Shown piece after piece: positions 42,385 through 58,710 of a DNA stretch of 64,000 nt. The notes below the pieces were generated by a model. The model did not search any database, was not told the origin of the DNA, and was given only the letters and a program-made list of their open reading frames with translations. Every line of letters begins with the position of its first letter. The first letter of the stretch is position 1. The translations under genes and the position numbers were made by a program. Source of the DNA: an uncultured Solirubrobacterales bacterium (GTDB taxonomy: Bacteria; Actinomycetota; Thermoleophilia; Solirubrobacterales; 70-9); contig CAVYEI010000002.1 in assembly GCA_963767475.1 (NCBI GenBank), positions 456,851-520,850 on the forward strand. The letters run 5' to 3'.

Positions 42385-42467
42385 CGGCGCCGGCCGTTCG
42401 GACCAGCTCGCCGGCTGACGACCAGCCGCCGCCGGAATGGCTTAGGCGAACGTATGTTCGGTCTCAG

Positions 42468-42532: not shown

Positions 42533-42612
42533 CCGACTCGAGCCACGGCTCAGGCGGACCTGCGCCGGAGTTGCCTGAAACTCAGGGCGTCAGCGCTGCT
42601 GTGCGTGGACGG

Positions 42613-43938
42613 CTACGGCCGTCGACGCACTGACACCGTCGCCGCGTGGGCGGGGAATCCCTCGTGGGCAGCCAGCGCCTCAACTGTGGGCGCAAGCCGC
42701 CAAAACGCCTCCTCGGTGAGGCTGGCGACAGCGGAACGCACCAAGTACGTCGCCGCAGTCACGCCGCTCGAGACCTTCGCGAATCCAGTCGTCGGCAGCG
42801 TTGCCGGCGTGCCGGTAGCGAAATTTGACATCGCGAAGGTCGTCCACGGGCCGAGCAGGATCGTGCCCGCATAGCGGATCAACGGCATCCACGCCTCTGG
42901 GTCCGCCACCGCCAGCAGTAGGTGCTCTGCGCCGTAGTCGTTCGCGATCTCGGCGGCTTGGGCCATGTCCGCCGCGAGGATCAGCCCTCCATTCATGGCG
43001 ATTGACGAAACGGCGTATGTGCACCGCGGTTCCGGCAAGCGCTCCAGCTGTGGGGTCAGCTCGTCGACGACCGACTCGAGCAGCCGGCGATCAGTCGAGA
43101 TGAGGATGGCCGACGAGTCCGACCCGTGCTCGGCCTCGTTGAGGAGGTCAGCGGCCAGAACCTTCGGATCGGCCGAGCCGTCGGCGATGATTGCCGCGTC
43201 GGTCGGGCCGAAACCGACCTCGACGACCGTCCCGAATTGCTGGACGAGCATTTGCGCGAGTGTCACACCGCGCCCGCCGGGACCGACGATCTTGCCGACC
43301 CTGGGGACGGATTCCGTGCCGAGAGCCATCGCCGCGATGCCAGCCGGTCCATTGCAGCGGAAGATATCTCGAACACCGAGCTCGTCGAGGGCGACCAGTG
43401 TCGCGGGATCGATGGTTCCGTCGTGCAAAGGCGGAACGCCGACAACGATTCGCTCAACCCCGGCGACCACGGCGGGGGTAGCGATCTGAATTGCGACCGA
43501 CGGATAGGACCCTTTCCCGCTAGGAACAAAAAGTCCGACGCTCGGTATCGCGCTCGCACGCTCACCGAGCATCGTGCCGTCGGGCCTCACAGCTTTCCAG
43601 GACGCGCGATCGCGGATCAGCTCGTTGAACTGTCGTGATTGAGCGATCGACGTCCTGATGGCCTGCAGGAGCTGGTCCGACACGAGGCTGCGCGCACGCT
43701 CGACTTCGCCCCGATCGACCCGCAACCGGCTCGCAGGGACGAGGACGTCGTCGTAAACACGAAGGGCTTCCACCAAGGCCGTGTCGCCGTGGACCCGAAC
43801 GCGGTCGACGAGCGCCTGGATCGACGTCCGGATATCGGAGTTCGGCCCGAGGCCCGCGGCGTTCCCGCCGCGAGTAATTACCCGTGCTCGCTCCGACTCC
43901 GTCGCGTGGGACCAGTCGAGGATCGTGAATGTTGTCAT
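42613..43938 (-). CDS. Histidinol dehydrogenase family protein, non-canonical subfamily (paralog 2)
   Basis: 441 aa. FGPTDAAIIADGSADPKVLAADLLNEAEHGSDS. SD GGAAGGAA. Confidence 0.75.
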   Translation of the reverse strand: MTTFTILDWSHATESERARVITRGGNAAGLGPNSDIRTSIQALVDRVRVHGDTALVEALRVYDDVLVPASRLRVDRGEVERARSLVSDQLLQAIRTSIAQSRQFNELIRDRASWKAVRPDGTMLGERASAIPSVGLFVPSGKGSYPSVAIQIATPAVVAGVERIVVGVPPLHDGTIDPATLVALDELGVRDIFRCNGPAGIAAMALGTESVPRVGKIVGPGGRGVTLAQMLVQQFGTVVEVGFGPTDAAIIADGSADPKVLAADLLNEAEHGSDSSAILISTDRRLLESVVDELTPQLERLPEPRCTYAVSSIAMNGGLILAADMAQAAEIANDYGAEHLLLAVADPEAWMPLIRYAGTILLGPWTTFAMSNFATGTPATLPTTGFAKVSSGVTAATYLVRSAVASLTEEAFWRLAPTVEALAAHEGFPAHAATVSVRRRP

Positions 43939-44024
43939 GGCTGAATTCCTTCCGTTCCAACTGCTTCAGGTCTTGACTCTTGCTCGGGTCTCAAGATGAG
44001 ATCCGGCTTCCGTGCGGAGGCCAC

Positions 44025-44801
44025 CTATGCCCCCGATTCGCCGCCGTCGACCGCGAGCACGACACCGCTGAGGTACGAGCCGGCCGTCGACGCGAGGTAC
44101 AGGGCCGCACCAGCCAGGTCGTCGGACGACCCCAGCCGACCCAGCGGGATCGCCTCCGTGAACCGCCGCTGCTCGATTGGATCTGCCAGCAGACCGCGCG
44201 TCATATCCGTGGCGAACAGCCCTGGAGCGATCGCGTTGACCGTGACAGTGGGAGCGAGATCCCGCGCGAGGTGCCGGGTCATCATGTGAACGGCCGCCTT
44301 CGAAGCGGCGTACCCGTAGTTCGGGACCGGCGATACGGCGATTCCGTCGATCGATCCTATGTTGATGACGCGGGACGGAGCCCCAGGACGGGCTGCGGCG
44401 CGCAGCGCGCCGGCCAGAGCGAGGGTCAGCTGGAGGGGCGCCTTGAGATTCACCGCCAGCAGCTGATCGAGCTCGTCTTCTGGGTGCTCACCTCGTTCAT
44501 GGAGCAATGTCGCCCCGGCATTGTTGATCAGCACGTCCAGGCGAGGCTCTTCGTTGAGAACCTGCGTGACTAGACGCTGCCGATCGGCGACGCGCGATAG
44601 GTCGGCGGTCGTGCTCGAGCACCGGGTGTGCGTGGCGACCTCAGCGACGACGCTGCTTAGCGCCTCGCGATCCCTGCCCGTCAGGTGAACTCGGGCGCCG
44701 GCGCGACCGAACGCGACCGCCAGCATCCGGCCGATGCCACGGCTGGCGCCGGTGATGAGCACACGTTTTCCAGACACGGAGAAGAGATCTCCGGGATGCA
44801 T
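44025..44801 (-). CDS. SDR family oxidoreductase
   Basis: ITGASRGIG cofactor motif, NNAG, and YAASKAA (YxxxK). Confidence 0.85.
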   Translation of the reverse strand: MHPGDLFSVSGKRVLITGASRGIGRMLAVAFGRAGARVHLTGRDREALSSVVAEVATHTRCSSTTADLSRVADRQRLVTQVLNEEPRLDVLINNAGATLLHERGEHPEDELDQLLAVNLKAPLQLTLALAGALRAAARPGAPSRVINIGSIDGIAVSPVPNYGYAASKAAVHMMTRHLARDLAPTVTVNAIAPGLFATDMTRGLLADPIEQRRFTEAIPLGRLGSSDDLAGAALYLASTAGSYLSGVVLAVDGGESGA

Positions 44802-44844
44802 GTCCTGTTCCTCTCATCGGGTTCGGGCCTTCGGCCCAAGGGGA

Positions 44845-44878
44845 CTGCTCGGCCGCGCGGGAAGGCGCGGCCGAGCAG
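44845..44878 (-). other. Perfect 14-bp GC-rich intercistronic stem-loop
   Basis: CTGCTCGGCCGCGC-GGGAAG-GCGCGGCCGAGCAG, between the PRTase-like and SDR genes. No T-run. Confidence 0.6.
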
Positions 44879-44890
44879 TGAACGAGAAAC

Positions 44891-45784
44891 TCAGAGCGCG
44901 AGCAACTGCTCGTAGAGCCCACGGTCCTTAAGCATCTCGGCAAGCGCGCGGAGCGCGTCGGTGGCGCCCTGGGCGTCGCCGCCGAAGATCTTCGCCATCC
45001 ACTCAGGCTCGTCGATGTACGCGTGGCTGGTGCCGTCCTCGAACCGGATCGCGTTCGTCAGGATCCAGTCCTTGGTGAAGTAGACATCCGTGTCCCACGA
45101 GACTGGGTAGGTCTCGCCGCGAAGGAGGACACCCTGGACCGGGCGCCAGCCCCGACGGTGGAACCCATCCTGCGTCGCCTGGCAGGCGATGAACCCGAGG
45201 GTCGAGATCTGCGCCTCCGGCCGCAAAGCGAGCAACTCGTTGACGACGGCCTCGGTGCCCTTCCCAGTCTGGATGCAATCGTCGATCACGGCGATTCGCG
45301 GCACGCGGTCGTGCTTCGGGATCCGCGCGACCGCCTCACGGCACTGCTCCGCGAGCCCGGCACCCTTGCTGACGCCGATCTCGAAACCCGAGTAGAAGGC
45401 GTCCGTCCGGTCACTCAGATAGTGGGTGACCCGAACGTTCGCAGCTTGCTCGCTCAGGTCTCGACCGTGATCCCGGCGGAAGACCTCCTGAAGCGTGTCG
45501 GAGGCATACCCACCGTTGCACCCCTGCGAGACCAGCAGGTCATAGGCGACGCCGCGGTCGGCGAGCTCCCAGGCGAGCTGGATCGCTGCGCCGTCCCACG
45601 TCGACAGGGTGAGGTCCTGACGACTGGGGTCAAGGCATGCGAGCGCCTGGTTGAGGTACCGGCCGACGCCGCGCAAGGCGTCGGCGGCCTCGGCGCTGGT
45701 GCCGCTCGATGAGGTCAACCTGCGCACGTGGTGCGTCAGGTCGTCGAAGACGTAGAGGTGCTTGATGACGTTGTTGTCAGTCAT
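44891..45784 (-). CDS. Phosphoribosyltransferase-like protein
   Basis: 297 aa. PRPP-loop-like RIAVIDDCIQTGKGTE. The N-terminal ~150 aa is unassigned. Confidence 0.5.
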   Translation of the reverse strand: MTDNNVIKHLYVFDDLTHHVRRLTSSSGTSAEAADALRGVGRYLNQALACLDPSRQDLTLSTWDGAAIQLAWELADRGVAYDLLVSQGCNGGYASDTLQEVFRRDHGRDLSEQAANVRVTHYLSDRTDAFYSGFEIGVSKGAGLAEQCREAVARIPKHDRVPRIAVIDDCIQTGKGTEAVVNELLALRPEAQISTLGFIACQATQDGFHRRGWRPVQGVLLRGETYPVSWDTDVYFTKDWILTNAIRFEDGTSHAYIDEPEWMAKIFGGDAQGATDALRALAEMLKDRGLYEQLLAL

Positions 45785-45973
45785 TTCTTTTCTCCATTTG
45801 CGGTTTGGTGACTTCGGTTTTTGCGATCTGTTGGGTCGACGGCCCCACGGCGGGCCGCGAGGCCACCCAGGCCGCCAGTCAGGGACGACGCCGTAAATGC
45901 GCCTTCACCTCCCTCCTTAATGAGTGGAGCGCGCGAACGGCAGGTGTCGCGCGCGATCGTCACCGAGCCCGGT

Positions 45974-46945
45974 TCACGTCCCCAGTGACTCGGCCAACAC
46001 CTCGGGCCCATGACCCTGGTTGACGACCTGTTCGGCGAGGTGGTCGTCCACCGCGACACCATGGCCGACGAAGGAGTTGCTGATCTGAACATCCGGGGCG
46101 ACGGTCGCGCGCTCTCCGATCACGGAGTTCTGGATCCGCGCTCCGGCCGAGATCGTGGCCTCGGGTCCAATCCAAAACCAGCCCGAAAGCCTCGCCTCGG
46201 GATCAACGTTCGCGGACGGCGCCACGTATCGCATTTCTCTGTCGGCGTGAGCGGACCAAATCCGTCGCCACGTTCCCAGGTCACGCCAATACCCCCTGCC
46301 GAACGTAATCCGGACCCGGTAGCCCTCCTCGATCAGGAGGGGAATGAACTCGTCGGCCCACGGATCTTCGGCCTGGTTGGGAATATCGGCCAGGCGCCTG
46401 AGTGCCCGAGGCGACGTCACTGTCATTCCGATCTCGTGTGCCACCACGGTGTCGCCGGACCCGGGCACGACGATGCCGTCGCGGTTCAGGGAGAACTCGC
46501 GTGGCTTTCCGAATTGACCATCCCCGCTGGCGTCGCGGACGGCGGCCACTGTCACGTCGGCAGCCAGGACCCGGTGCGTCGTGAGCGCCGTTCCCCAGCT
46601 GGGGTCGAGGAGAAGATCTCCGTTCAGCGTCACCATGGGCGTCATGGACGTTTGGGCCCAAGCGAGCAGCCACTCATACACGCCCGGCCAATCCAACACG
46701 TGCACCGGCTCACACCGAAGCGCCGAGTTGCGGACCGCCTCCCGCAGCAGGTCGAGCTCGCACGTTGGCCGCGCGAGAAGTGTCGCCTTCACGACACCCC
46801 AACTCCTCAGCAGTCCTAGCTGGCGTCGGACGAGAGGCTCGCCCAAGAACGGAATCAGAGCCTTGGATGGCACGGCGGGCCCGAGCCGCCGACCGAAGCC
46901 GCTCGAGAGAATTGCAGCCTCGAATAGCTTGTCGAACGTCTGCAT
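45974..46945 (-). CDS. Sugar-phosphate nucleotidyltransferase with C-terminal hexapeptide-repeat (LbH) region
   Basis: AAILSSGFGRRLGP...SKALIPFLGEPLV, GYWRDLGT, and I/V-G-x hexapeptide repeats at the C-terminus. Confidence 0.75.
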   Translation of the reverse strand: MQTFDKLFEAAILSSGFGRRLGPAVPSKALIPFLGEPLVRRQLGLLRSWGVVKATLLARPTCELDLLREAVRNSALRCEPVHVLDWPGVYEWLLAWAQTSMTPMVTLNGDLLLDPSWGTALTTHRVLAADVTVAAVRDASGDGQFGKPREFSLNRDGIVVPGSGDTVVAHEIGMTVTSPRALRRLADIPNQAEDPWADEFIPLLIEEGYRVRITFGRGYWRDLGTWRRIWSAHADREMRYVAPSANVDPEARLSGWFWIGPEATISAGARIQNSVIGERATVAPDVQISNSFVGHGVAVDDHLAEQVVNQGHGPEVLAESLGT

Positions 46946-46984
46946 CGTTCGTTCCTTCCTGAGTGTGCGTGGTTTACCGCGACC

Positions 46985-47034
46985 GACGGATCGGCTCCTC
47001 GCGCCCCTTCGGGGCCACGAGGAACCGATCCGTC
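46985..47034 (-). other. Long (about 21-bp) intercistronic hairpin
   Basis: GACGGATCGG CTCCTCG CGCCCC TTCG GGGCCA CGAGGAA CCGATCCGTC, between the cupin and nucleotidyltransferase genes. Confidence 0.6.
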
Positions 47035-47041
47035 AGCGTCG

Positions 47042-47440
47042 TCAGCCAGCCGAGTCCGGCAGCGGCTCGCCGGTCTCGAACTCATCAGCGAGCGTGAAGG
47101 CGGGCGAGTTGGCCGCGATCATGATCACCCGCTCGCCTGAGTTGTTCCGACTCCCGTGGCTCATGCCCGGCGGGATCGAGATCCCGTCGCCGGCCCGGAT
47201 CTTGAACATCTCGCCGTCCAGGAACAGGTCGAGCTCACCCGAGACGATGTAGAGAATCTCGGAGCCGGTTTTGTGGACCACAGGTGTCCGAATCGCACCG
47301 GGCTCGATCACCAGGTAGTCCATCGAGAGACTCCCGAGGTTCCCGAGGACGTGCATCCTCATGTCCGCGGTGAGACTGCTCCAGGACCCGTCGTCGAGAT
47401 TGGGAACCGTTGAGACATGCTGCCTCGGGTCGCTCGTCAT
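47042..47440 (-). CDS. Cupin domain protein
   Basis: Start at MTSDPRQ, in an ATGA overlap with the ThDP enzyme stop. Cupin motifs VHKTGSEILYIVSG and IPPGMSHGSRN. Confidence 0.75.
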   Translation of the reverse strand: MTSDPRQHVSTVPNLDDGSWSSLTADMRMHVLGNLGSLSMDYLVIEPGAIRTPVVHKTGSEILYIVSGELDLFLDGEMFKIRAGDGISIPPGMSHGSRNNSGERVIMIAANSPAFTLADEFETGEPLPDSAG

Positions 47441-49197
47441 CGCGCAGCCCCCTCGATGCCGAAGAAGGGCGAAGGCGCCGGAGCGGGGTCGATGATCGCG
47501 TCGATCACGATGGGCCGCGCCGCAGCCAGAGCCCACTCGAGAGCCTGATCGAGCTCAGCCCTTGTCGTCACTCGCCTCCCGTCGGCACCAAGTGATCGAG
47601 CCAGACCAACGAAGTCGGTCGGAGGCAGATCGACGGCGACCGGCCGGTGCCCCTCACGCTCGAACCAGGCGCGCTGGGTTCCGAGGGTGCCGTTGTTGAA
47701 GATCACCCAGGTAACGGCCGCCTGCTCAGCCACGGCCGCAGAGACCTCGAGACCGGACATCAGAAAGCCGCCATCGCCCGTGGTGGCGATGACACGCTCG
47801 TGCGGCATCTCCCTGCGCGCCAGCCAGGCGCCGAGCGCGCCAGCCACGGCGTGCCCCATCGCCCCGAGGCCCGCATTGAGGACGAATCGGTCATCACCGC
47901 GCGTTCGCAGGTAGCGCTCGACCCAGTACGCGTTCTGGCCGATGTCGGCGACCACGCTGGTCCGCCCGTCGAGATGCGCGTTGATGGCTTCACAGACCTC
48001 GACCGGGTGCAGCAGGGCGCCCGCCTCCAGTTCGGAGTCGGGGTGCTCGCGACGAAGACGCTCTGCGCGGGAGAGGCCATTGCCTACCTTGGACGCCCCG
48101 ACCATCGCCTCTGCGAGCCCGCGGACGAACGCACCAGCTTCCGCGTTCAACCCGAGGCTCGCCATGTAGTTGTTTGTCAGCTCCCGACGATCGATGTCGA
48201 CTCGGATCAGCCGGTCCGGCGGCATCGGGATCGACCAGCCCGAGGTGGACAGCCATGAGAAGGCGACCCCCAGCGCCAAGACCACGTCGGCCTCGGCGTG
48301 AAGGGCGTGGTTTGCGGCCGCGCGCCCGTAGATTCCAATCGGTCCGAGGACGAGCGGGTGACGCTCATCCAGGTAACGCTTCGCCGCGAACGTCCCAGCG
48401 ATCGGAACGTCCAACCGCTCCGCGAGCTCGATCAGCTGAGCCGCGGTCGCCGGCGAGCCGATGCCGCCGCCGGCGAGGATCAAGGGACGCTCGGCTTGCG
48501 CCAGTCGCTTGACGACCGCGGCGACCTCATCCGACTTCGGCTCCGGGCCCGCGCTTACGGCGCGAAGAGAAAACTCGGGCAGATCTCCGACCATCGACGG
48601 CACCTCGGCCGTGAACAGATCCGAGGGAATGTCGATGTGGACCGGGCCGGGCCGGCCAGCCTGGGCGAGCCGGATCGCCGACTCGAAGCAGCGTCGCAGC
48701 TCGTGGACCTTCTTCGGCTGGTAGGTCTGCTTCGTTGTCGCCTGGAACATCAGCGGGATGTTGGGTGTCCGACCACGGCCAGTGCCCTCCTGGATCCCGT
48801 AGCGCCCGAACTCGCCGGTCTCAGCCTGAGCCGTGATCAGGAGCATCGGAACACTGTCCATCCACGCTGCAGCCGCTCCTCCGAGAAGGTTGATCGCCCC
48901 CGGCCCAGAGGTGGACATGGCGACACCAATGTCGCCGGTGATGCGCGCGTGGGTGTCTGCCATGTACGCCGCACCCTGCTCGTGACGAGCCAGGGTGATA
49001 CCGATGTTGACCTCGTCCAGCGCGTGCCAGAGGGGGAGGATGCGCTGTCCGGATATGCCGAACGTGTGTTTAATCCCAGCCGCAGCGAGGAGTGCCGCGA
49101 CCAGCTCGGCACCGGTCCACGCCCGCTGACCCAACTCACCTTTGTCGCCTCCGTTGCGCGGCTGCTGGCCGTCGCTACGGGTCTCGTCGTGACTCAT
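47437..49197 (-). CDS. Thiamine-diphosphate-dependent enzyme (acetolactate synthase large-subunit-like)
   Basis: ThDP motif GDGGFLMSGLEVSAAVAEQAAVTWVIFNNG. N-terminal Pyr domain GIKHTFGISGQRILPLW. Start chosen at MSHDE. Confidence 0.8.
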   Translation of the reverse strand: MSHDETRSDGQQPRNGGDKGELGQRAWTGAELVAALLAAAGIKHTFGISGQRILPLWHALDEVNIGITLARHEQGAAYMADTHARITGDIGVAMSTSGPGAINLLGGAAAAWMDSVPMLLITAQAETGEFGRYGIQEGTGRGRTPNIPLMFQATTKQTYQPKKVHELRRCFESAIRLAQAGRPGPVHIDIPSDLFTAEVPSMVGDLPEFSLRAVSAGPEPKSDEVAAVVKRLAQAERPLILAGGGIGSPATAAQLIELAERLDVPIAGTFAAKRYLDERHPLVLGPIGIYGRAAANHALHAEADVVLALGVAFSWLSTSGWSIPMPPDRLIRVDIDRRELTNNYMASLGLNAEAGAFVRGLAEAMVGASKVGNGLSRAERLRREHPDSELEAGALLHPVEVCEAINAHLDGRTSVVADIGQNAYWVERYLRTRGDDRFVLNAGLGAMGHAVAGALGAWLARREMPHERVIATTGDGGFLMSGLEVSAAVAEQAAVTWVIFNNGTLGTQRAWFEREGHRPVAVDLPPTDFVGLARSLGADGRRVTTRAELDQALEWALAAARPIVIDAIIDPAPAPSPFFGIEGAAR

Positions 49198-49330
49198 CTC
49201 TTGGGACTCACCTTCTTTTGTGGGCGGGGTCGGGGTGACCACCGCCTGGACTGGCCTCGGCGTCGCCGAAGCCAAGCGCTGCGCCGCGGAGTCGAACCGC
49301 GGCGCAGCGACCAACCGTCAGGCGTGCGGA

Positions 49331-50242
49331 CTAGCCGCGGGCGCGAAAGAACCTGCCGAGCGCCGCGCTCAGCGATTTCAGGACCCGTGCGCCTGCCCGG
49401 GCGTAGTACTTCACCTCAACCCAGTAGTTGTGGCCCCAATGGAACGCCGCCAGGGCGCGACTCATGATCGAAGATCGCAACCACGCGGGGCATCCGGGCA
49501 TGTCTCGGAGTGAGGCCCGAATGCGTGCCCGTATGGCCATTCGATCGCGGGTAGACATCGTCACCATTTGGGTGTGGAGACCAACGACCGTGCCTTGGCG
49601 CCGGTAGTTGTAGACGGGCTCCGTGGTTTGAACGAGCGGTCCGCGTAGAGCGAGAGCGATCGTCAACGGCCAGTCCTCGGCGTGGCTGACGTCCGCGAAC
49701 CCGCCCGCGGCACGCACCTCATCGGTTCGCAGAAGGGCGCCATGCAACGGATACGCGAGCCGGGTCGAAAAGAAGAGCGCCACCAGCGATGGCTTCCCTG
49801 TCAACGCTCGGTGCAGCCTTCGCATCCATGGATGTGGCCAAGGATCAAGGCGTTCGTCGCCCGAATCACTGTTCCAAAGCACCTGAGCGCCTTGGAGAGC
49901 CACCGCGTTCGGGTGTCGGTCGCGCAGCTCGCACAGGTAGCGCAGGGCTCCCGGAAGCAGCGCGTCGTCGCAATCGAGAAAGACGACCCAGGGCGTTGCG
50001 ACGTGTTCGAGTCCAAAGTTGCGGCTGGAACCGAAGCTGGCGCGGCGGGTTATGCGCATCACCTCTACTCCCTGCCCCTGCCGAACCGGGACCTTGGACT
50101 CGTTGTCGATGACGAGGATCCGCACCCGAACATCTTGCGACCTCACAGAGTCGATGCAGTTAGTGAGCCACTCCTCTGGCAGATCCCAGTAGGGGATGAC
50201 GACCGTGATGTCGGGGTCGTCCGGAATGTTCAATTCGTTCAC
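49331..50242 (-). CDS. Glycosyltransferase family 2 protein (copy A)
   Basis: GTG start after SD GGAGGAAAC. ITVVIPYWDLPEEWL and FLDCDD (DxD). Paralog of 51607..52551. Confidence 0.75.
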   Translation of the reverse strand: MNELNIPDDPDITVVIPYWDLPEEWLTNCIDSVRSQDVRVRILVIDNESKVPVRQGQGVEVMRITRRASFGSSRNFGLEHVATPWVVFLDCDDALLPGALRYLCELRDRHPNAVALQGAQVLWNSDSGDERLDPWPHPWMRRLHRALTGKPSLVALFFSTRLAYPLHGALLRTDEVRAAGGFADVSHAEDWPLTIALALRGPLVQTTEPVYNYRRQGTVVGLHTQMVTMSTRDRMAIRARIRASLRDMPGCPAWLRSSIMSRALAAFHWGHNYWVEVKYYARAGARVLKSLSAALGRFFRARG

Positions 50243-50361
50243 CGTTTCCTCCAATAGAACGGCCGATCCGCGCGGCCGTAGCAAGCGTGGCCACGCGGGA
50301 GCACCGGTTGGCGTCAGCCCGAACCGCTGGGCGCCAACCGGTGCGTCTGTCAGACGGTGCT

Positions 50362-51492
50362 CTAGACCGCGAGGGTCTCCAGGTACAGGCGCTCGTATCC
50401 GGATGCGAAGGCGTCGACCGTGTAACGGTCGGCGACACTGGCTCGGCACCTCTCGCGGTCAATCTGCGGGATCGCCGAAACCAGCTCCACAAGCTCGGGA
50501 GTGGTGAGAGCCAGGAACCCGTTGAGACCGTGCTGCACGATTTCGCCGACCGCGCCATCCGGGAATCCGAGCACTGGAGTGCCGCAGGCGAGGGCCTCAA
50601 CGATCCCAAGGCCGAACGGCTCGCACCACTTCGCCGGCCAGAGCAGGGCGGCGGCGCCCGCTAGCAGGTCGATCTTGGCCTGCCCGCCGACCTCACCCAC
50701 GTACGAGATGCGGTCGCCGTCGACATGCGGGGCTACGTATCCATCGAAGAACGCTTCCTGTCCACGGTGAACAGGGCCAGCGAGAATCAGGCGCATGCCC
50801 GAATGCTGAGCGATCTCAATGGCCCGGTGGGGGCCCTTCAGCTCCTGGACCCGTCCCATCCACAGCAGGTAGTCGCCGCGCTCGCGACGCAACGGCCAGG
50901 CGGACACGTCGATCGCGTGGTTGATCACCGTCGCCTCGACAGATGCCGGGGACCCGTCAACCTCGGCGTTGAAGAACCGGCACGTCCCGCCGGCGCAGTT
51001 CAACTGCCCCTGGCTGATGGCCGCCAGCTTGACCTCGTGGTGGTAATCGGCATAGAAGCGCCCGACCGGCGGGTTCAGCTGACCATGCATGGTGTGGACC
51101 ATTGGGACGCTGAGGCGGTCCGCCATACCCACCGCCATGAATCCACTGTGATCGTGAACCAGGTCGAAGGGCTCTGCGGCAGTCTCGATCGCCGTGAACG
51201 CTCGCGACACGTGATGCGCTTCGTATGGCGGACGCAACGGCGTTCCCGCATGGGCCTTATCGAGGACGGGACGCACCATCGCGAGCGAGGTCGAGCCCGG
51301 AGGGCAGAAGAGCTCGACGTTGTGGCCACGCCGCACGAGCTCGTCTGTGAGCATCGCGACGACCAGCTCGGTTCCGCCGTAGCCTTTTCGCGGCGGCACC
51401 TCAGCCCAAGGCCCGGCCAGCATCGCGATCCGCAGGCTGCGGTCGATCGCGGACCCGCGAGCCGACTTGAAGTTTGCGTTGTTTCGTTCCAT
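50362..51492 (-). CDS. Glycosyltransferase family 4 protein (copy A)
   Basis: YGGTELVV N-terminal motif. EX7E region CEPFGLGIVEALACGTPVLG. Confidence 0.8.
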   Translation of the reverse strand: MERNNANFKSARGSAIDRSLRIAMLAGPWAEVPPRKGYGGTELVVAMLTDELVRRGHNVELFCPPGSTSLAMVRPVLDKAHAGTPLRPPYEAHHVSRAFTAIETAAEPFDLVHDHSGFMAVGMADRLSVPMVHTMHGQLNPPVGRFYADYHHEVKLAAISQGQLNCAGGTCRFFNAEVDGSPASVEATVINHAIDVSAWPLRRERGDYLLWMGRVQELKGPHRAIEIAQHSGMRLILAGPVHRGQEAFFDGYVAPHVDGDRISYVGEVGGQAKIDLLAGAAALLWPAKWCEPFGLGIVEALACGTPVLGFPDGAVGEIVQHGLNGFLALTTPELVELVSAIPQIDRERCRASVADRYTVDAFASGYERLYLETLAV

Positions 51493-51606
51493 TTGAGTGT
51501 TCTCCGTTTCTCTTTCTTTCAGGACGCCGTCGCGCTCTAGAGCTCTCAATCTGAGACGCAACGGACGCGTGGGGGCCGCGCGCGAGGATGGCCCTCGCGG
51601 GGCCGC

Positions 51607-52551
51607 TCAGTTGCCGATCCCGAGCCTTCGCGAGGTCCGCTGGAGCACTTCGGTCACTCGGCAGCGGATGAGAACCTCGTGCAGGTGATGGAGCGCAGCC
51701 AGAGCCCACCGGGTCGGCCGGATCTTCAGCCACCCGCTCGTGGCTGGCTCATTGATGAGGTGCTGGAGGATGCGTGCACGCACGTCAGCTCGCGTTCGCG
51801 AAGGAAGGCGCCAGACCTCGCGTCCGCGCGCCCGCGTACCGTCATCGCGGCGAGGCGCGGTACTCAGGGTCGCCGTCTGGAGCTGGCGGCGATACGCGTA
51901 GGTCGGAACTCGCGTCTGGATCATTCGCCCCCGAAGGCTCATGGACACGAGTAGTGCCCAATCCTGTGCTTGCCGCCAGTCCGCGAATCCACCTGCCTCG
52001 CGGACAGCTTCCGTTCGTAGAAGCGCACCGTGCATCGGAAAGTTGCAGCGGATCGCGGCCAGGAAGGCCGAGGCGCGCCGCGAGCCCTGGAGGCGCTTGG
52101 CGATCCAGCGCATCCATAGGTAAGGCCACCGGTCCAGAACCTCCTTGGACTCATCCGAAAACCAGAGGTGTTGCCGCCCTTGCACCCCGTGCGCTTCCGG
52201 GTGTTCGTCGATCAGGCCGCGCAGGTACCGCAGGCTGCCCGGCAGCATCCGGTCATCAGCGTCGAGGAAGGCGACGAGCCCGGTCGTGACGTGCTCGAGG
52301 CCGATATTCCGCGCTACACCGACCGTGCCTTGCTCCGCGATCCGAACGACCTCAACGCCCTCGAGCTCGGGGATCGGCACCGACGAGCAGTTGTCCACTA
52401 CGAGGATCCGAGCCGGTTCTTCTTGCTCGCGTACCGAATCGACGGCGATTCGAAGCCACTCCTCCGGCAGGTCCCAGTACGGAATGACGACCGTGATCCG
52501 GGACGCATCGGGCTCCCCAGACTCAAGAGCAAACCGATCCGACAGTTCCAT
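51607..52551 (-). CDS. Glycosyltransferase family 2 protein (copy B)
   Basis: SD GAAGGAGA. ITVVIPYWDLPEEWL and FLDADD. Confidence 0.75.
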   Translation of the reverse strand: MELSDRFALESGEPDASRITVVIPYWDLPEEWLRIAVDSVREQEEPARILVVDNCSSVPIPELEGVEVVRIAEQGTVGVARNIGLEHVTTGLVAFLDADDRMLPGSLRYLRGLIDEHPEAHGVQGRQHLWFSDESKEVLDRWPYLWMRWIAKRLQGSRRASAFLAAIRCNFPMHGALLRTEAVREAGGFADWRQAQDWALLVSMSLRGRMIQTRVPTYAYRRQLQTATLSTAPRRDDGTRARGREVWRLPSRTRADVRARILQHLINEPATSGWLKIRPTRWALAALHHLHEVLIRCRVTEVLQRTSRRLGIGN

Positions 52552-52723
52552 TCCTATCTCCTTCGAGAGGCAACTCCAACCGCGCTTTGCAGCCGGAGAC
52601 CGCGCGGAGTTGACTCCGCGCGTCATGCCGATCGCCGTAAGGGCGTCGGTCAAATGCCAGCGGACCGGCGTCCCCACCAGTTGGACGTGTGGGGACGCCA
52701 GCGCTGACGTCCGGCAGGTGTTC

Positions 52724-53806
52724 CTATCGGCGAGCCACCTGTCGGTAGATCTCTTCGTAGCGGTCAGTCATCGCGCCGACACTGAAGCGCTCGGCGACGG
52801 CTCGGCACGCGTGCGGGTCGATCTCGCCGGCGCGCCGCGCAGCGTCCGCCATGCTCGGCACATCGTCGACGAGATAGCCGCTGACACCGGGAACGATGAT
52901 CTCGCGGGCGGCCCCTTCGTCGAAGGCGATGGCAGGTGTCCCCACGGACATGGCCTCGAGCATCACAAGGCCGAACGGCTCACACCAACGGATCGGCAGC
53001 ACCAGCGCTCGGGCCCGTGAGAACAGTCGCCATTTCTGCTCGCCGGCGATCTCGCCGACCCAGGAGATGCCGTCCGTTCCCAGGTGCGGGCGGACCATGC
53101 CCTCGAAATAGTCGCCGCCGTAGCTGGGGACCGGACCTGCGAGCACGAGCGGCAGGCCCGACAGCCGTGCAACTTCGATCGCGCGATGCGGACCCTTGTC
53201 TCGAGTCATCCGACCGACGAAGAGCAAATAGTCCTCCTTCTCCTCAGCCACAGGCCAAACGTCGAGACCGTTCCACACCACAGACGCGTCGAGCTCGAGG
53301 TTGGGCGGCTCCGCTCGACGACATCGCCCGGCCCCGCAGTCCAGCTGGCTCTGGCTGATGGCGACCAATCGCGCCTTGTGTCCGTGCTGTGCGTAGAACC
53401 CGGCGGGGTCGCCGTTGAGATGCCAGTGCATCGTGTGAACCATCGGCACGGCGAGGCGATCGGCCATCGCCAACGCGACGTAACCGCTGTGGTCGTGAAC
53501 CACGTCGAATGGCGGATCGGAAGCCTCGATCGCTGCGAACGCCCGCGCCACGTGATCAGCCTCATAAATCGAACGATTGCCACCATTCGGGTAGGCGTGG
53601 TGGAGGAGCGGCCGGACTACGGCCGACGACCTCGAGCCGGGTGGTGCGAAGAGCTCGACCGAGTGTCCGCGGCGTACAAGCTCGTCGGTCAATGGGAGGA
53701 TGACCGCCTGGATGCCACCCTGAGCGGACGGAACGGGACGGGTGTGAGGGGCGAGAAGGGCGATACGAAGTAGCTCACTCGGAGCGCGCCGAATGTCGTG
53801 ATTCAT
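52724..53806 (-). CDS. Glycosyltransferase family 4 protein (copy B)
   Basis: SD AGGAAGGA. CEPFGLVMLEAMSVGTPAIAF EX7E region. Paralog of 50362..51492. Confidence 0.8.
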   Translation of the reverse strand: MNHDIRRAPSELLRIALLAPHTRPVPSAQGGIQAVILPLTDELVRRGHSVELFAPPGSRSSAVVRPLLHHAYPNGGNRSIYEADHVARAFAAIEASDPPFDVVHDHSGYVALAMADRLAVPMVHTMHWHLNGDPAGFYAQHGHKARLVAISQSQLDCGAGRCRRAEPPNLELDASVVWNGLDVWPVAEEKEDYLLFVGRMTRDKGPHRAIEVARLSGLPLVLAGPVPSYGGDYFEGMVRPHLGTDGISWVGEIAGEQKWRLFSRARALVLPIRWCEPFGLVMLEAMSVGTPAIAFDEGAAREIIVPGVSGYLVDDVPSMADAARRAGEIDPHACRAVAERFSVGAMTDRYEEIYRQVARR

Positions 53807-53818
53807 GACTCATCCTTC

Positions 53819-55138
53819 CTAGGAGTTCAGGGTGCTAGCCCGGCCGATGCCTTCGTAGACCAAGCCGGCGGCGCGAACCTGGGCCGGGTCGAGGTAGTTG
53901 CGGCCGTCGATCAGGAGGGGGTTCGCCATTCGGCGACCCAGCCGACGCCAGTCGAGGTCGGCGAACTCCGGCCACTCTGTTACGAGAATCGCCGCATCCG
54001 CGCCGGCCAACGCGTCCTCCGCCGATCCAGCCAGCTCGACCGCGGGCAGCAGCCTCGCCGCTCGACGCGCCGCGACCGGGTCGTAGGCCACGACTCGCGC
54101 CCCCGCGCCTTGCAAGCGCGCGGACAGCACGAGACTTGCCGCGTCGCGCATGTCATCGGTGTTGGGCTTGAAGGCCAACCCGAGCAGAGCGACACGCCTT
54201 CCGACGAGTGAGCCGAGGTGCTTGACCAGCTTTTGCACGACCCGCCGCTTCTGCAGTTCGTTGACCTCGATCACGGCGGTCAGCAACTGGAAGTGGTAAC
54301 CGGTATTGCCTGCCAGCACCTTCAGCGCGCTGACGTCCTTCGCGAAGCAGGAGCCGCCATAGCCGATGCCCGCGCGGAGAAAGCTGGGAGCGATCCGGGT
54401 GTCGAGCCCCATTCCCCGCGCCACCTCGACGACGTCAGCACCGGTCTCGTCGCAGACGTTCGCGATCTCATTGATGAACGAGATCTTTGTCGCCAGAAAG
54501 GCATTTGAGGCCAGCTTGATCATCTCGGCCGAGGCGACGTCCGTTCGCACCACCTCCGCACCCGAGTAGTCATAGAGGCGCTGCACCGCATCCGCGGCGC
54601 CCTGATCGTCGCCCGCAACTCCGATCACGACCCGCGCGGGGTTGAAGAAGTCGTCGACCGCCGAGCCCTCTCTCAAGAACTCGGGGCATGAGACGTATCT
54701 CAGTCCGGGCTTGGCACGACGAAGAGCGTGCCCGGTGCCAACCGGGACCGTGCTCTTCATGATGAAGACGTGCTCGCCCCCGCAAGGCACACCTCCCAGC
54801 ACCGCTCTTACCCGCGAGAGATCGGCGTCCCCGGCGTGCGTCGACGGAGTGTCGACACAGCAAAAGATCTGCCGCGTCTGTCCGACGAGCAGGTCCATGG
54901 ACGTGGTGAAATGAAGGCGTTCGCGGTTCTTGACGACGAGCGCGGCGAGCCGCGGTTCGTGGATAGGCACCTCGCCTTCGGAGAGCGAGGCAACCTTGTC
55001 GTCGTCGACGTCCATGACGATCACCCGATGGCCAAGCTCAGCGAAGCCGGCCGCCGTCACGAGCCCGACCCAGCCGGCACCAACCACGCCGATTGTGGTG
55101 GGCCGCTGGACCGCCTCTGAAGATGCGTGTTCTGACAT
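53819..55138 (-). CDS. UDP-glucose/GDP-mannose 6-dehydrogenase family protein
   Basis: IGVVGAGWVGL Rossmann motif. Catalytic Cys in GIGYGGSCFAKDV. Confidence 0.85.
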   Translation of the reverse strand: MSEHASSEAVQRPTTIGVVGAGWVGLVTAAGFAELGHRVIVMDVDDDKVASLSEGEVPIHEPRLAALVVKNRERLHFTTSMDLLVGQTRQIFCCVDTPSTHAGDADLSRVRAVLGGVPCGGEHVFIMKSTVPVGTGHALRRAKPGLRYVSCPEFLREGSAVDDFFNPARVVIGVAGDDQGAADAVQRLYDYSGAEVVRTDVASAEMIKLASNAFLATKISFINEIANVCDETGADVVEVARGMGLDTRIAPSFLRAGIGYGGSCFAKDVSALKVLAGNTGYHFQLLTAVIEVNELQKRRVVQKLVKHLGSLVGRRVALLGLAFKPNTDDMRDAASLVLSARLQGAGARVVAYDPVAARRAARLLPAVELAGSAEDALAGADAAILVTEWPEFADLDWRRLGRRMANPLLIDGRNYLDPAQVRAAGLVYEGIGRASTLNS

Positions 55139-55209
55139 CACAGCTCCTATCTCGAGGGTGGATGGCGGCGGATCGGCCGCCGGTTTGAGGGATCTCTGAG
55201 CCCCTCGCA

Positions 55210-55242
55210 GGCGCCTCCACCCGAGACTCGAGTGGAGGCGCC
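55210..55242 (-). other. 11-bp GC-rich stem-loop after the aminotransferase gene
   Basis: GGCGCCTCCAC-N11-GTGGAGGCGCC. Confidence 0.55.
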
Positions 55243-55286
55243 GCCGTTTGGCTCAGCGAAACGGGATCTGTGGTTCAGTCACCGGG

Positions 55287-56408
55287 TCAGGGCTGTCCGT
55301 CAACCGCTGCACGCGCTCGTTGGATGGCACTGAGGACGAGTCGGAGGTCGTCCTGCAGAGGCACGCTGATGCGTGCCCATCCCGGAAATCCCAGCCCCGA
55401 CATCTCGCGAACGTGGATCCGTGAAACGTCCGCCATGCGTGCCACGACAGCCGCTCCCTGGGAGCCGAGATTCGCGAGGACGAAGTTGGCTTCCGACGGG
55501 AGGGCCTGGATTCCGAGCTGCTGCAGTTCCCAGACGAGCGACGCTCGCACCCTGCGATTCGCGCTCACGACCCAACTGATGTGCTCCTGATCGGCGAGTG
55601 CCTCCGGCGCTGCCGCCAACGCGATCCGGTTGACGTTGTAGGGCAGCGCGTTGCGCTCGGCCAGCATCGCGGCAATGACGGCCTCGTCACCGACGGCGTA
55701 GCCGACCCGAAGGCCCGCCAAGCCGTAGGCCTTCGAGAACGTTCGAAGAACCACCACGGACCCACCGTCGATGTGCTCCAGGCCACTCTGGAAGACGTCC
55801 GGGTCCGGGTCAGCGAACTCGGCATATGCCTCATCGAGAACCAACACGGTTCCGGTCTGCCGAGCGGCCGCAACCAGCGCCGTGACCTGATCGCGGTTGA
55901 GCGCAGCGCCGGTGGGGTTGTGAGGATTCGCCAACATCACCGGTGCCGGTCCCACCATGGCGTCGATGACCGCATCCACGTCGATTGCCGAGTCACGCAG
56001 CGGGACTATCCGAGCGGGCTGTCCGGCGATCTCCATCGACGCGGCATAGCCGGCGAAGGTGTTCGTCGTGGTCACGCCGAGCCCCGCCAGGCTGACCGTG
56101 GCCTGGGCGATCAGCAGGATCAGCTCGTCCGTGCCGTTGCCGAGAACGACGTTGTTCAGCGAGATCCCGTAGTGGTCCGCGATGGCGCTGCGCAACGGCT
56201 CGCCGTCAGAGTGGGGGTAGAGGTTGAGACGCGTCAGCTCAGCGGCGGCCGCGCGCTCCGCCCTCGAAGATGGCCCGTACGGGCTCTCCGACAAGGCGAG
56301 CCGCTTAACGCCCAGCGGGTCGTGAGCGTGGGGCTGCGCCTGGAAAGGCGTCAGCGTGGGGAACTGGCGCACAAGGGTCCTGTAGTCACGGCTTGGTTTG
56401 TCGGTCAT
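55287..56408 (-). CDS. Histidinol-phosphate aminotransferase-like (class II PLP aminotransferase)
   Basis: Start at MTDKPS. YPHSDGEPLRSAIADHYG. PLP-lysine box VLRTFSKAYGLAGLRVGY. Confidence 0.75.
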   Translation of the reverse strand: MTDKPSRDYRTLVRQFPTLTPFQAQPHAHDPLGVKRLALSESPYGPSSRAERAAAAELTRLNLYPHSDGEPLRSAIADHYGISLNNVVLGNGTDELILLIAQATVSLAGLGVTTTNTFAGYAASMEIAGQPARIVPLRDSAIDVDAVIDAMVGPAPVMLANPHNPTGAALNRDQVTALVAAARQTGTVLVLDEAYAEFADPDPDVFQSGLEHIDGGSVVVLRTFSKAYGLAGLRVGYAVGDEAVIAAMLAERNALPYNVNRIALAAAPEALADQEHISWVVSANRRVRASLVWELQQLGIQALPSEANFVLANLGSQGAAVVARMADVSRIHVREMSGLGFPGWARISVPLQDDLRLVLSAIQRARAAVDGQP

Positions 56409-56612
56409 TCCATTGACCTCTCTGTTTCGGCAACGCGCTTGCTCCGTTGCTTCGAGTGACCCTCCGGCGGAGTTGCCAGGGGCCAGCGCCGCATCCGGGG
56501 GTCGAACCCGTGATGCGGCTGGGAACCGGTCAGCGCCATCCTCCTGACGCCGCCTACTGCATCGTCTCCAATCTTGGGGTGACAAATGCCGATCGCCCTG
56601 CGGCGGTGCGCC

Positions 56613-57206
56613 TCAGCTCAGACCCTCTGGAAACCGCCTTGGAGCGAGCGCGCCGGAAACCACACGGGCAAACACCTCTTGGACGCGCAAGGGCTCATCC
56701 CCGAGCTGCTTACTGCACTCAGCCAAAAGAGCGTTGAGGTCCGGCATGGCGCCGTACTCGACGTACCAGCGGTCGAGCTCGTCGAGTGGCCTCCCGCTGA
56801 CGGCGCCCGAAACGATCGACGCTAGGAGCGTCCGCCGATCCGCGCCGCGAGATGCGGTCTCGCGGATGCGCCAGAGCGCGATCGCGGTCAGGATCGGGGT
56901 GCCCAGCGCAAACATGCACAGGATCAGGAGGACCTTGCCCGCGATAGAGCCGCTCGCGAGACCGCCGAGAAATCGCATGCTTTCCTCGGGACCGAACTCC
57001 ACCAACAGCCTCACGATCGCGGCTGCTAGTACGAGTTGGCAGACACACACGCCGATGTAGCTCCGCAGCCATGCTGGGATGCGCTCTGCTTCCGGCGTGA
57101 CCACCACCTCGATGAGCCAGCCAAGCGTCACGACAATCATGAGGATCGCGAGCATGAACGCTGCAATCATCGGGAAGTGCTCCCAGTGACCAGTCACGGT
57201 CATCAT
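56613..57206 (-). CDS. Hypothetical integral membrane protein
   Basis: SD GAAGGAG. Four predicted TM helices followed by a soluble ~70-aa tail. Confidence 0.5.
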   Translation of the reverse strand: MMTVTGHWEHFPMIAAFMLAILMIVVTLGWLIEVVVTPEAERIPAWLRSYIGVCVCQLVLAAAIVRLLVEFGPEESMRFLGGLASGSIAGKVLLILCMFALGTPILTAIALWRIRETASRGADRRTLLASIVSGAVSGRPLDELDRWYVEYGAMPDLNALLAECSKQLGDEPLRVQEVFARVVSGALAPRRFPEGLS

Positions 57207-57258
57207 CTCCTTCTTGGGATGGATTTGGAGGCTTTCGGCCTCCTCGCGCCTGAACGGT

Positions 57259-57534
57259 TCAGGCGCGGAGAGTCCGCAGCGCGAACGCAGCACTCCGGTT
57301 GGTGTGGACCAGACGCTTTGCCTCGCGGATGCACGCGCCCCGGATTCGCGGTGCCTTGGTGCCCTCGCCGTACGCCTCCGGCAACTGCTTGGCCATCATC
57401 TGGGCGACCAGGGCTCGGCCTTCCTCGCCCAGGTTGAAGACTGCGTTCAGGGCGGCGCCCGGCCTCAACGTGGCGCGCTCAGCCAGGTCCATCAGGTGCT
57501 CGAAGGAGTCGGTCAGGTTGGTGGTCGTGGACAT
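57259..57534 (-). CDS. Hypothetical protein (91 aa)
   Basis: SD GGAAGGAA. Helical composition. No motif recognised. Confidence 0.4.
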   Translation of the reverse strand: MSTTTNLTDSFEHLMDLAERATLRPGAALNAVFNLGEEGRALVAQMMAKQLPEAYGEGTKAPRIRGACIREAKRLVHTNRSAAFALRTLRA

Positions 57535-57642
57535 GAGGGGGTGGTTCCTTCCGTGACGGGCCGCTCATTGCTGAACGGTTGAGAAGATGTTCTCTTCGTT
57601 CGCTGTTACCGGTGGATCGACGATCGGGTCCGCCAGGGGGCC

Positions 57643-58710
57643 TCACATCACCACGAGGGCCTTGATCAGCGAAGCCTCACGCGGTTGCCACGCCATCGCG
57701 TGGAACGCGTCGTTGATCTCGTCGAGGCCGTAGTGGTGAGTTAGCACCGGTCCGAAGTCGAAGCGAGGAGACGCAAGGATCGTGAGTGCGGTCTCGGTCG
57801 CTCGGACGAGGTAGGACAGGTCTCGGCCCGAGCATTCGACGAGCTCGATCCCGCTGCGCGCGGCCTCCGAGATGGTCTGCCTCGGGGCGTCGACGCCCCA
57901 TCGATAGCCGACCTTGGCGACCTTCCCGCCTGGTATGGCGGCGCTGCCCTTTCGCGTGACCTGGAGCGCAAGCGGAACGCCTTGCGGCGGGCCCCAGGTG
58001 TCGAACGTGACGTCCGCGCCGTCAGGGCCCAGGAGGTCGTGCACGGCATCGATCGCCTCCTTGGCGATGTTGACCACGCGGGTAGCACCGAGTCCCTCGG
58101 CGACCGTGAGCGGATGGTCCCGGCGCCCGATGACGATGACCTCGCTTGCGCCGATAGAACAGGCGGCCGTCAGCATCTGCGCCACACCCCCAGTGCCGAG
58201 GATGACGACCTTCTGGCCCTTGACCTGGCCAACGTCGTCGAGGAGGTGGATCGCGAACCCGAGCTGATGTGCGAGCAGCGGGTAAGCGACCGAGGGACCG
58301 ACTTTGACGCAGCGCGTCGCCGGGACGATGACCTCCTCCCCGAAACCCGACAACGGACGCTCTTGCAGCGGGATCACAAGGTCGCCGGGCCTCACGTGGT
58401 TCACGCCCCAACCGACTCGCCTTACCCGACCCACGGCCTCGCCGCCGATCGAAGGTGCTGCGGACGTGCCCCGGTAGACGGCCTTCCAGAACTGGTCGTT
58501 CAAGAAGAACTGCGACTCGAGACCGTTGACGCCGCAGGCGTTGATCTGGACGCGGACCTCCTCGTAGCCCAGGTCGCGAGGCGGCTCGTGCCGGAAACCT
58601 ATGTCGTGATAAGCGTCGAGCTCTGCGAACTTCGTCAATTCGATCGCCTTCTTAGATGGATGGGACCCGCGTCCGGGGTGCTGTCGGGGCACCGCGGACG
58701 CAGCGGTCAC
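57643..58710 (-). CDS. Medium-chain dehydrogenase/reductase (MDR) family oxidoreductase
   Basis: GroES-like N-terminal region EEVRVQINACGVNG, which lacks the second Zn ligand pattern. Rossmann motif VVILGTGGVAQ. Confidence 0.7.
   Translation of the reverse strand: MTAASAVPRQHPGRGSHPSKKAIELTKFAELDAYHDIGFRHEPPRDLGYEEVRVQINACGVNGLESQFFLNDQFWKAVYRGTSAAPSIGGEAVGRVRRVGWGVNHVRPGDLVIPLQERPLSGFGEEVIVPATRCVKVGPSVAYPLLAHQLGFAIHLLDDVGQVKGQKVVILGTGGVAQMLTAACSIGASEVIVIGRRDHPLTVAEGLGATRVVNIAKEAIDAVHDLLGPDGADVTFDTWGPPQGVPLALQVTRKGSAAIPGGKVAKVGYRWGVDAPRQTISEAARSGIELVECSGRDLSYLVRATETALTILASPRFDFGPVLTHHYGLDEINDAFHAMAWQPREASLIKALVVM

Follow-up and report, generated by a model that had tools for sequence, protein, structure and literature searches.

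What might be made by a gene cluster that sets an acetolactate synthase (ALS)-like, thiamine diphosphate (ThDP)-dependent enzyme beside relatives of two histidine biosynthesis enzymes, a phosphoribosyltransferase (PRTase)-like protein and four glycosyltransferases (GTs)? The question is raised by a run of 15 genes at positions 42613-58710 of a 64,000-nucleotide stretch of contig CAVYEI010000002.1 (assembly GCA_963767475.1), hereafter the window, from an uncultured Solirubrobacterales bacterium. Our analysis suggests that the cluster is a composite of two layers, a rare seven-gene cassette (HisC-like aminotransferase, ThDP carboligase or decarboxylase, metal cupin, GMPPB-like nucleotidyltransferase, PRTase, short-chain dehydrogenase/reductase (SDR) and variant HisD) and a five-gene glycosylation block (UDP-glucose 6-dehydrogenase (Ugd) and a duplicated GT4-GT2 pair) that would have been inserted in this species. 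We favour, with a probability of roughly 0.55, a glycosylated, ribose- or nucleotide-linked, amino-acid-like secondary metabolite as its product.

All 15 open reading frames (ORFs) are encoded on the minus strand, with short gaps between them or with overlaps (ORF list, Pfam, NCBIfam). The minus-strand layout and every gene family named by a first-pass annotation, made from the sequence without database searches, were recovered with Pfam and NCBIfam and, for the PRTase, by its fold. In a consensus scan of the cluster, promoter-like sites were absent and terminator-like sites were fewer than in shuffled sequence.

Recurrence of the cassette in other genomes

The window proteins were mapped onto 11 loci that carry a member of the ThDP enzyme's clade or of the PRTase family, from Streptomyces, Actinoplanes, Clostridia metagenome-assembled genomes (MAGs) and metagenomes; a contig search with a 4-sequence alignment gave three loci and one fragment. 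Orthologues of the PRTase-like protein, the nucleotidyltransferase, the cupin and HisD are each present in 10 of the 11 loci, those of the HisC-like aminotransferase in 8 and those of the SDR in 4 (54-61% identity in L006, L018 and L028), while the four GTs, Ugd and the three genes upstream (a medium-chain dehydrogenase/reductase (MDR), a small protein and a membrane protein) have orthologues in none. The first-pass annotation had described a real and unusual cluster, which is borne out by a rare cassette that recurs in this way, and the HisC-, HisD- and PRTase-like genes that it had considered atypical do belong with the ThDP enzyme, as they recur together in other genomes. The synteny search that it had proposed had a divided outcome, with the cassette core found again and the GT/Ugd block not.

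Gene order indicates how the two layers came together. HisC-like orthologues of 45-61% identity stand directly upstream of the ThDP gene in six loci (L004, L005, L006, L018, L028, L034; 32% in L036), and the HisC-like gene usually overlaps the ThDP start. The metagenome locus L028 reads HisC, ThDP, cupin, NTP-transferase, a 399-aa gene, PRTase, SDR, HisD and methyltransferase, which is the order of the window minus Ugd-GT4-GT2-GT4-GT2; the sugar block thus appears as an insertion between the HisC-like and ThDP genes, two genes that elsewhere are predicted to be translationally coupled. In L006, L018 and L028 a gene of 392-399 aa with an HExxH motif and no Pfam family lies between the NTP-transferase and PRTase genes. 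At its position the window has a spacer of 189 nt (45785-45973, minus strand), and no remnant of this ~395-aa gene was found in the window or the genome.

The genes that adjoin the cassette in other hosts are informative about its chemistry. In Streptomyces sp. NBC_01166, Actinoplanes sp. NEAU-A12 and L034, HisD is fused or adjacent to an ATP-grasp ligase and is accompanied by a second HisD-like gene, a class III aminotransferase, a major facilitator superfamily (MFS) exporter and an NMT1-type ATP-binding cassette (ABC) system. L035 carries an adenylation domain, a carrier protein (PCP), a condensation domain and an ATP-grasp gene beside the cassette, L036 a carrier protein (PCP) and a PhyH dioxygenase, and the Clostridia MAGs an ABC-2 exporter, a GH3 hydrolase and an unrelated GT2; methyltransferases also adjoin it, and 8 of the 11 loci have no GT in view. 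Such neighbours are what surrounds a secondary-metabolite core that has been recombined with modules for ligation, tailoring and export, and the ATP-grasp, non-ribosomal peptide synthetase (NRPS), methyltransferase and exporter genes point to an amino-acid-like or nucleotide-linked metabolite. A phosphonate pathway was rejected, as no PEP mutase occurs in any cassette locus examined.

The cassette also has the hallmarks of a rare, horizontally acquired or mobile element. The cluster was not found in the 38 same-genus genomes searched, to which the DNA of 40771-60000 is matched only at hutH and Ugd, and its GC content is ~65.5% against 70.0% for the genome. Patchy distribution with horizontal transfer, and a core recombined with ligases, tailoring enzymes, exporters and regulators, are what is expected of a secondary-metabolite cluster. 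A literature search found no description of such a cassette or of its metabolite class.

Enzymes of the cassette

The ThDP enzyme (47437-49314, minus strand), the core of the cassette, has all three TPP_enzyme domains and the superfamily motifs RHEQGA (with the catalytic Glu of HEQ) and TGDGGF...FNNG (GDGG...NN). Its true start is probably M40 (49197), as judged from homologues of 551-578 aa and from AAGGTGAG, which precedes that ATG. The first-pass annotation had named a normal ilvB-type enzyme with its small subunit nearby as an observation that would speak against its reading; no ACT or ALS small-subunit (IlvN) domain is found in the cluster by Pfam, and the neighbours of the ThDP gene are a GT2 and the cupin. 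The enzyme scores 347.2 bits on TIGR00118 (NCBIfam cut-off 538.35) and lies under the cut-off of every NCBIfam family, while the canonical ilvB is encoded on contig C3 of the same genome (808.5 bits). The sub-cut-off score, the absence of an adjacent IlvN and the copy on C3 together rule out the biosynthetic IlvB. The name "acetolactate synthase", which automated annotation would give, is very probably wrong here.

The ThDP enzyme belongs to a small clade, separate from generic ALS: in a collection of 5.8 billion proteins its relatives from Streptomyces, Actinoplanes and metagenomes number ~20, with identities of 42-70%, beyond which generic ALS sequences reach <=37%. Its best PDB match is BbmA (8x3x, E 2e-85). 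BbmA (PDB 8x3x/8xod), the closest solved ALS/AlsS-type carboligase, shares with it the three-domain ThDP build and the HEQ and GDGG...NN motifs, whereas the window enzyme falls below all curated cut-offs of the ALS/AlsS-type families and within its own ~20-member group. PRTase, NTP-transferase and HisD partners are not known for the ALS/AlsS-type carboligases of specialised metabolism, but are constant in the clade of the window enzyme. ScyA of scytonemin synthesis is an ALS-type ThDP enzyme of specialised metabolism, and ScyB precedes ScyA. The ThDP gene here directly follows one whose product converts amino acids into 2-oxo acids, which resembles this ScyB-ScyA order.

The HisD-like gene at 42613-43938 (minus strand; HisD2) encodes a variant of the HisD family of four-electron dehydrogenases (PF00815), and its score of 365.8 bits on TIGR00069 is well over the cut-off of 243.8. 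Its signature is NEAEHG and SNF..GTPATLPT in place of QAEH and GDY..SNHVLPT, with the catalytic EH and two His ligands kept. The same signature is carried by all actinobacterial cassette HisDs and by a second variant in the window (HisD1, below), and the changes Q259->E, D360->N and N-H367->P-A are found in all actinobacterial cassette HisDs. Gln259, Asp360 and His367 (E. coli numbering) are zinc and substrate residues of HisD, and through the Gln-to-Glu and Asp-to-Asn changes carboxylate and amide are predicted to trade places among the metal ligands. The canonical hisD of the genome, a third HisD copy, lies on contig C6 and keeps the QAEH, GDY and NHVLPT residues, which rules out HisD2 as the organism's histidine-pathway copy. 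Given the remodelled signature and the copy on C6, it is very probable that the window HisD-like genes do not encode histidinol dehydrogenases, the name they would receive from the curated model, and "histidinol dehydrogenase" is a second automated name that very probably needs correction. The Clostridia versions of the cassette have a canonical-looking HisD.

That the HisD fold can serve other substrates is known from HpsN (DHPS-3-dehydrogenase), a family member in which other primary alcohols are oxidised to acids at the same zinc site, and in which the equivalent Asp is an essential zinc ligand (PMC11382572). Organosulfonate metabolism of the HpsN-/Xsc-like kind, with a TauA/SsuA-like binding protein, was considered and set aside: the match of HisD2 to HisD (E 1e-68) is much stronger than its match to HpsN (E 1e-39 to 1e-44), and on the ThDP enzyme the Xsc model scores lower than ALS models. 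A literature search for histidinol dehydrogenase with ThDP, PRTase or ATP-grasp in one gene cluster returned only the HpsN paper.

Two natural variants of HisD occur in the Streptomyces/Actinoplanes-type cassettes. One is a fusion of variant HisD and ATP-grasp ligase of 868-887 aa (L005:6241-8904, L034:6298-8904), which suggests that the HisD product is a carboxylate passed directly to an amide-forming enzyme. The other is the second HisD-like gene (L004:11671-12975, L005:11662-12945, L034:11653-12936), in which GGEQ replaces PEH, with Gln for the catalytic His; its product is unlikely to be a dehydrogenase that works in the usual way.

The HisC-like class I/II aminotransferase (55287-56585, minus strand; PF00155; probable true start M59, about 56411) carries the pyridoxal phosphate (PLP)-lysine motif RTFSKAYGLAG and scores 233.3 bits on TIGR01141, below the cut-off of 276.55. 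A separate, more distant HisC-family homologue (34.5% identity) is encoded on contig C3. With late histidine biosynthesis the cassette thus shares the HisC family with its PLP lysine, and the HisD fold, Glu-His pair and two His ligands, but differs in a HisC-like protein that stays under the hisC cut-off and a HisD2 changed by Q259E, D360N and N-H367->P-A.

Three further cassette genes could act on the ketol or activate the product. The SDR (44025-44801, minus strand; adh_short; TGxxxGxG and YxxxK motifs), present in the L006/L018/L028 type of cassette, is of the classical FabG- or glucose-dehydrogenase-like type and not an extended SDR. The small metal-type cupin (47042-47536, minus strand; Cupin_2), whose true start is probably M33 (47440), overlapping the ThDP stop by 4 nt, has H..E and H ligand motifs and weak PDB matches to quercetinase, oxalate decarboxylase and KdgF, with no dTDP-sugar-isomerase (RmlC-type) family among its matches. 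The nucleotidyltransferase (45974-46945, minus strand) has a C-terminal left-handed beta-helix (LbH), Pfam matches to NTP_transf_3, NTP_transferase and LbH_EIF2B and a GxGxRL motif; its best NCBIfam match is to mannose-1-P guanylyltransferase, far under the cut-off at 56 bits, and its PDB match is 7d72 (E 1e-6).

The signature gene of the cassette encodes the orphan PRTase-like protein (44891-45784, minus strand; P0001), which has no Pfam or NCBIfam match, PF00156 included. An AlphaFold model from an alignment of eight homologues (pLDDT 93.6) matched APRT, PyrR, HGXPRT and OPRT in Foldseek with a probability of 1.0 and template modelling (TM) scores of 0.3-0.64 (0.42-0.64 when target-normalised), and the protein is therefore predicted to fold as a type I PRTase. 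It carries the canonical phosphoribosyl pyrophosphate (PRPP) loop VIDDCIQTGKGT, in which T-G-x-T comes after an acidic pair; the whole family conserves this loop, with D168, C170, T173 and G174 invariant. The family is very small: a profile search of 1.84 billion representative proteins recovered 32 with E<1e-3, and 12 with E<1e-30; distant members of the family reach 19-32 bits on PF00156 (cut-off 26.3). No relative was found in a plasmid collection, or in the 36 same-genus and 24 same-order genomes searched.

The glycosylation block and possible products

The sugar block comprises, in plus-strand order and all on the minus strand, GT2a (49331-50449; on record as 303 aa, which places its start at 50242), GT4a (50362-51561), GT2b (51607-52677; Glycos_transf_2; on record as 314 aa, which places its start at 52551), GT4b (52724-53806; Glycos_transf_1 and Glyco_transf_4) and Ugd (53819-55141; three UDPG_MGDP_dh domains). 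The two GT2-GT4 pairs stem from an old tandem duplication, GT2a and GT2b being 43% identical and GT4a and GT4b 48%. Only 14 proteins matched GT2b at E<=1e-10 when 8,000 word-sharing candidates from the 5.8-billion-protein collection were scored, two of them the genome's own GT2s. Ugd scores 385.6 bits on TIGR03026, over its cut-off, and is 71% identical in amino acids to a paralogue on contig C3 (C3:1063979-1065256), so that the sugar block may have been assembled within the lineage rather than have arrived with the cassette. The GTs beside the cassette in L001 and L019 were rejected as orthologues of the window GTs, at only 22-23% identity.

Family chemistry allows a route through the cassette to be sketched. 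Adjacent to the ThDP reaction, the HisC-like aminotransferase would carry out an amino/oxo interconversion, the ThDP enzyme would make an alpha-hydroxyketone by decarboxylative C-C coupling, and the cupin and SDR could then isomerise, decarboxylate or reduce the ketol. The HisC-like/HisD-like pair would work as in late histidine synthesis, from a keto-alcohol(-phosphate) through an amino-alcohol to an amino acid, with the variant HisD as an alcohol-to-acid dehydrogenase yielding the carboxylate that ATP-grasp or NRPS enzymes may ligate in other hosts. The PRTase would add ribose-5-phosphate from PRPP, the nucleotidyltransferase would nucleotidylate a phosphate and, in this organism, the four soluble GTs together with Ugd would attach a short oligosaccharide that contains glucuronate. 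Re-import or salvage of the product would probably fall to three elements located 5-13 kb downstream: an NMT1-type ABC importer, a DMFA2-like amidase and the second variant HisD.

Several observations weigh against this proposal. The order of the chemical steps is one that we infer from family chemistry only. The cassette never occurs with the sugar block elsewhere, so that what couples the two layers is position, strand and short gaps. The ~395-aa HExxH gene of the closest relatives is missing here, and the pathway may therefore be altered or incomplete; the canonical look of the Clostridia HisDs means that the HisD link may not be uniform; and the nearby ABC importer, amidase and hut genes would also fit a catabolic role.

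A rather unlikely alternative is that the cluster serves the cell envelope, with the GTs and Ugd building a glucuronate-containing wall or surface oligosaccharide, for which the cassette would provide a non-sugar substituent and/or the PRTase would add ribofuranose-5-phosphate from PRPP. The embedding of Ugd and four GTs in the cassette is consistent with such a role, as are a nucleotidyltransferase that is nearly universal in the cassette, the unrelated GTs that adjoin it in L001 and L019/L020, and a distant GT2 relative that belongs to a locus for wall polysaccharide, together with WecA-like and Wzy genes. The cluster can also be likened to the C. jejuni HS:2 and H. influenzae b capsules. 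Cj1437 (serinol-phosphate transaminase) is of the HisC type and Cj1438C (amide ligase) of the ATP-grasp type. The PRTase fold, a UDP-glucose dehydrogenase, a HisC-type transaminase and GT4 enzymes are shared by the cluster with H. influenzae b Bcs3 (CriT/CrpP) and C. jejuni HS:2 (Cj1432, Cj1435-1438, Cj1441), and an HS:2-like ATP-grasp ligase is found in homologous cassettes. The HS:2 locus combines UDP-glucuronate synthesis, amidation of glucuronate with serinol or ethanolamine and a GT4 domain, and ribofuranosyltransferases of PRTase fold that use PRPP are known in glycan synthesis (PMC12096443, PMC10299916).

The differences from these systems are nevertheless considerable. The PRPP loop of P0001, with its contiguous DD and TG-GT, is that of classical N-PRTases, and the 50 best fold matches listed for this protein are such enzymes (APRT, PyrR, HGXPRT) and not Bcs3. 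A partner haloacid dehalogenase (HAD) phosphatase and a glycan acceptor would be expected of a CriT/Cj1432C-type PRPP-dependent O-ribofuranosyltransferase; Pfam finds no HAD domain in 42.6-58.7 kb, no capsule export genes and no priming phosphoglycosyltransferase, flippase, polymerase or ABC-2 exporter among the 15 genes, and a hydropathy scan finds no transmembrane segment in the four GTs. In addition, the cassette also occurs free of GTs, and most of its loci have instead the ATP-grasp, NRPS or exporter genes typical of soluble metabolites.

Linked genes and the less probable readings

Downstream of the cluster, a group of minus-strand genes outside it is linked to the cassette (Pfam): the NMT1-type ABC importer (29168-31871), HisD1 (31849-33216; NEAEHG and N..PA signature), a Glu/Leu-dehydrogenase-like gene of the Glu/Leu/Phe/Val-dehydrogenase family (33213-34526) and the DMFA2_C amidase-like gene (35535-37685). 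HisD1 is translationally coupled to the Glu/Leu/Phe/Val-dehydrogenase-family gene and lies directly upstream of the ABC binding protein (31849-34526). Orthologues of the importer binding protein and of DMFA2 flank the cassette in L001, L004, L005 and L034, where they are reciprocal best matches of the window copies, and the importer and amidase may accordingly belong in function to the cassette and not to histidine breakdown.

Interleaved with the linked module are the hut genes at 26272-42384 (hutH, PDF-like, two amidohydrolases, hutI, hutU), which represent a divergent second set in a rearranged order. A compact, genus-typical hutH-hutU-PDF-amidohydrolase-hutI operon on the same contig (C2 ~720000-727000; L037) is the true orthologue of the operon in relatives, with 82-93% amino acid identity to it; the window copies have 64-77% identity to this operon and to the relatives' copies.

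These surroundings bear on an improbable reading in which the cluster has no common product, the cassette being catabolic or for salvage (NMT1 uptake, amidase, transaminase, ThDP decarboxylase, dehydrogenases and hut) and the GT/Ugd block an unrelated insertion. The orthologous linkage of importer and amidase to the cassette in four other loci agrees with it, as do the Glu/Leu-dehydrogenase-like gene, the second variant HisD and a complete second hut set directly downstream; the sequence of transaminase, ThDP decarboxylase and dehydrogenase is moreover a known catabolic order, as in the arginine transaminase pathway, and NF005712 scores 305 bits, under its cut-off. The PRTase, nucleotidyltransferase, ATP-grasp, NRPS domains, methyltransferases and MFS/ABC-2 exporters are biosynthetic partners, however, the very rare and patchy distribution with TetR or IclR regulators is that of secondary-metabolite clusters, and the hut genes are linked to the cassette in none of the 11 other loci.

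Least probable is a YerE-like pathway, in which an NDP-sugar would come from the NTP-transferase, an NDP-ketosugar would receive a two-carbon branch from the ThDP enzyme and be processed by cupin and SDR, and the branched sugar would be transferred by the GTs: ThDP, NTP-transferase, cupin, SDR and GT genes do stand side by side, with a ThDP enzyme that is not IlvB, as an ALS-like enzyme stands beside a nucleotidyltransferase and GTs in the yersiniose pathway (compared by gene content), but such a branched sugar is unlikely because the cluster has no NDP-hexose 4,6-dehydratase, nor does it have an extended SDR or other NDP-sugar-modifying enzyme, the HisC-like, HisD-like and PRTase genes, the most constant partners of the ThDP gene, are left unexplained, the NRPS parts and the fusion of HisD with ATP-grasp indicate that the building block is a carboxylate, and the orthologous ThDP genes are mostly not beside GTs. 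This reading was the first-pass annotation's own, and it loses further ground through the absence of a DegT-type aminotransferase and through a core that recurs apart from the sugar block; its assignment of the cupin and SDR as sugar-nucleotide isomerase and ketoreductase is at odds with a cupin that is not RmlC-type and a classical SDR. Its other suggestion, an amino-acid-decorated glycoconjugate, survives for this organism only, where the sugar block is embedded in the cassette, while the activated branched sugar that went with it is unlikely. A new glycosylated metabolite is thus more likely than a branched-chain sugar.

Beyond this organism, we tentatively suggest that the cassette encodes an undescribed pathway whose products, amino-acid-like and linked to ribose phosphate or a nucleotide, would be a new class of metabolites. 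A recruited HisC/HisD pair would convert a keto-alcohol made by the ThDP enzyme into an amino acid, different hosts would ligate, methylate or glycosylate the product, and the dedicated importer and amidase would retrieve it. If so, it would be a compact, transferable pathway with two enzyme families of unassigned specificity (the orphan PRTase, with ~30 representatives in 1.84 billion proteins, and the metal-site-swapped HisD), and a natural experiment in pathway evolution, the same core being combined with ATP-grasp, NRPS, methyltransferase or glycosyltransferase modules according to host. Its practical value is as a defined target for genome mining and heterologous expression; no long-standing open question is touched.

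The three genes upstream of the HisC-like gene, also on the minus strand, stand apart from the cassette. The membrane protein (56613-57293; probable true start near 57206) has three to four hydrophobic segments in a hydropathy scan, and the 91-aa protein (57259-57534) was assigned no function; neither has a Pfam or NCBIfam match. The MDR-superfamily oxidoreductase (57643-58710; ADH_N and ADH_zinc_N), the first gene of the co-directional run, has GGE in place of the GHE zinc motif. Both the MDR and the 91-aa protein were rejected as cassette members, as the former is only 20% identical to the L001 MDR and the latter has no similarity to its L001 counterpart. Conservation within the genus is poor over most of the 64-kb window, and the variable region may therefore exceed the window. 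In the first 40 kb, same-genus genomes reach 83-90% DNA identity only at 21715-23647, a stretch that in those genomes is on other contigs than hut.

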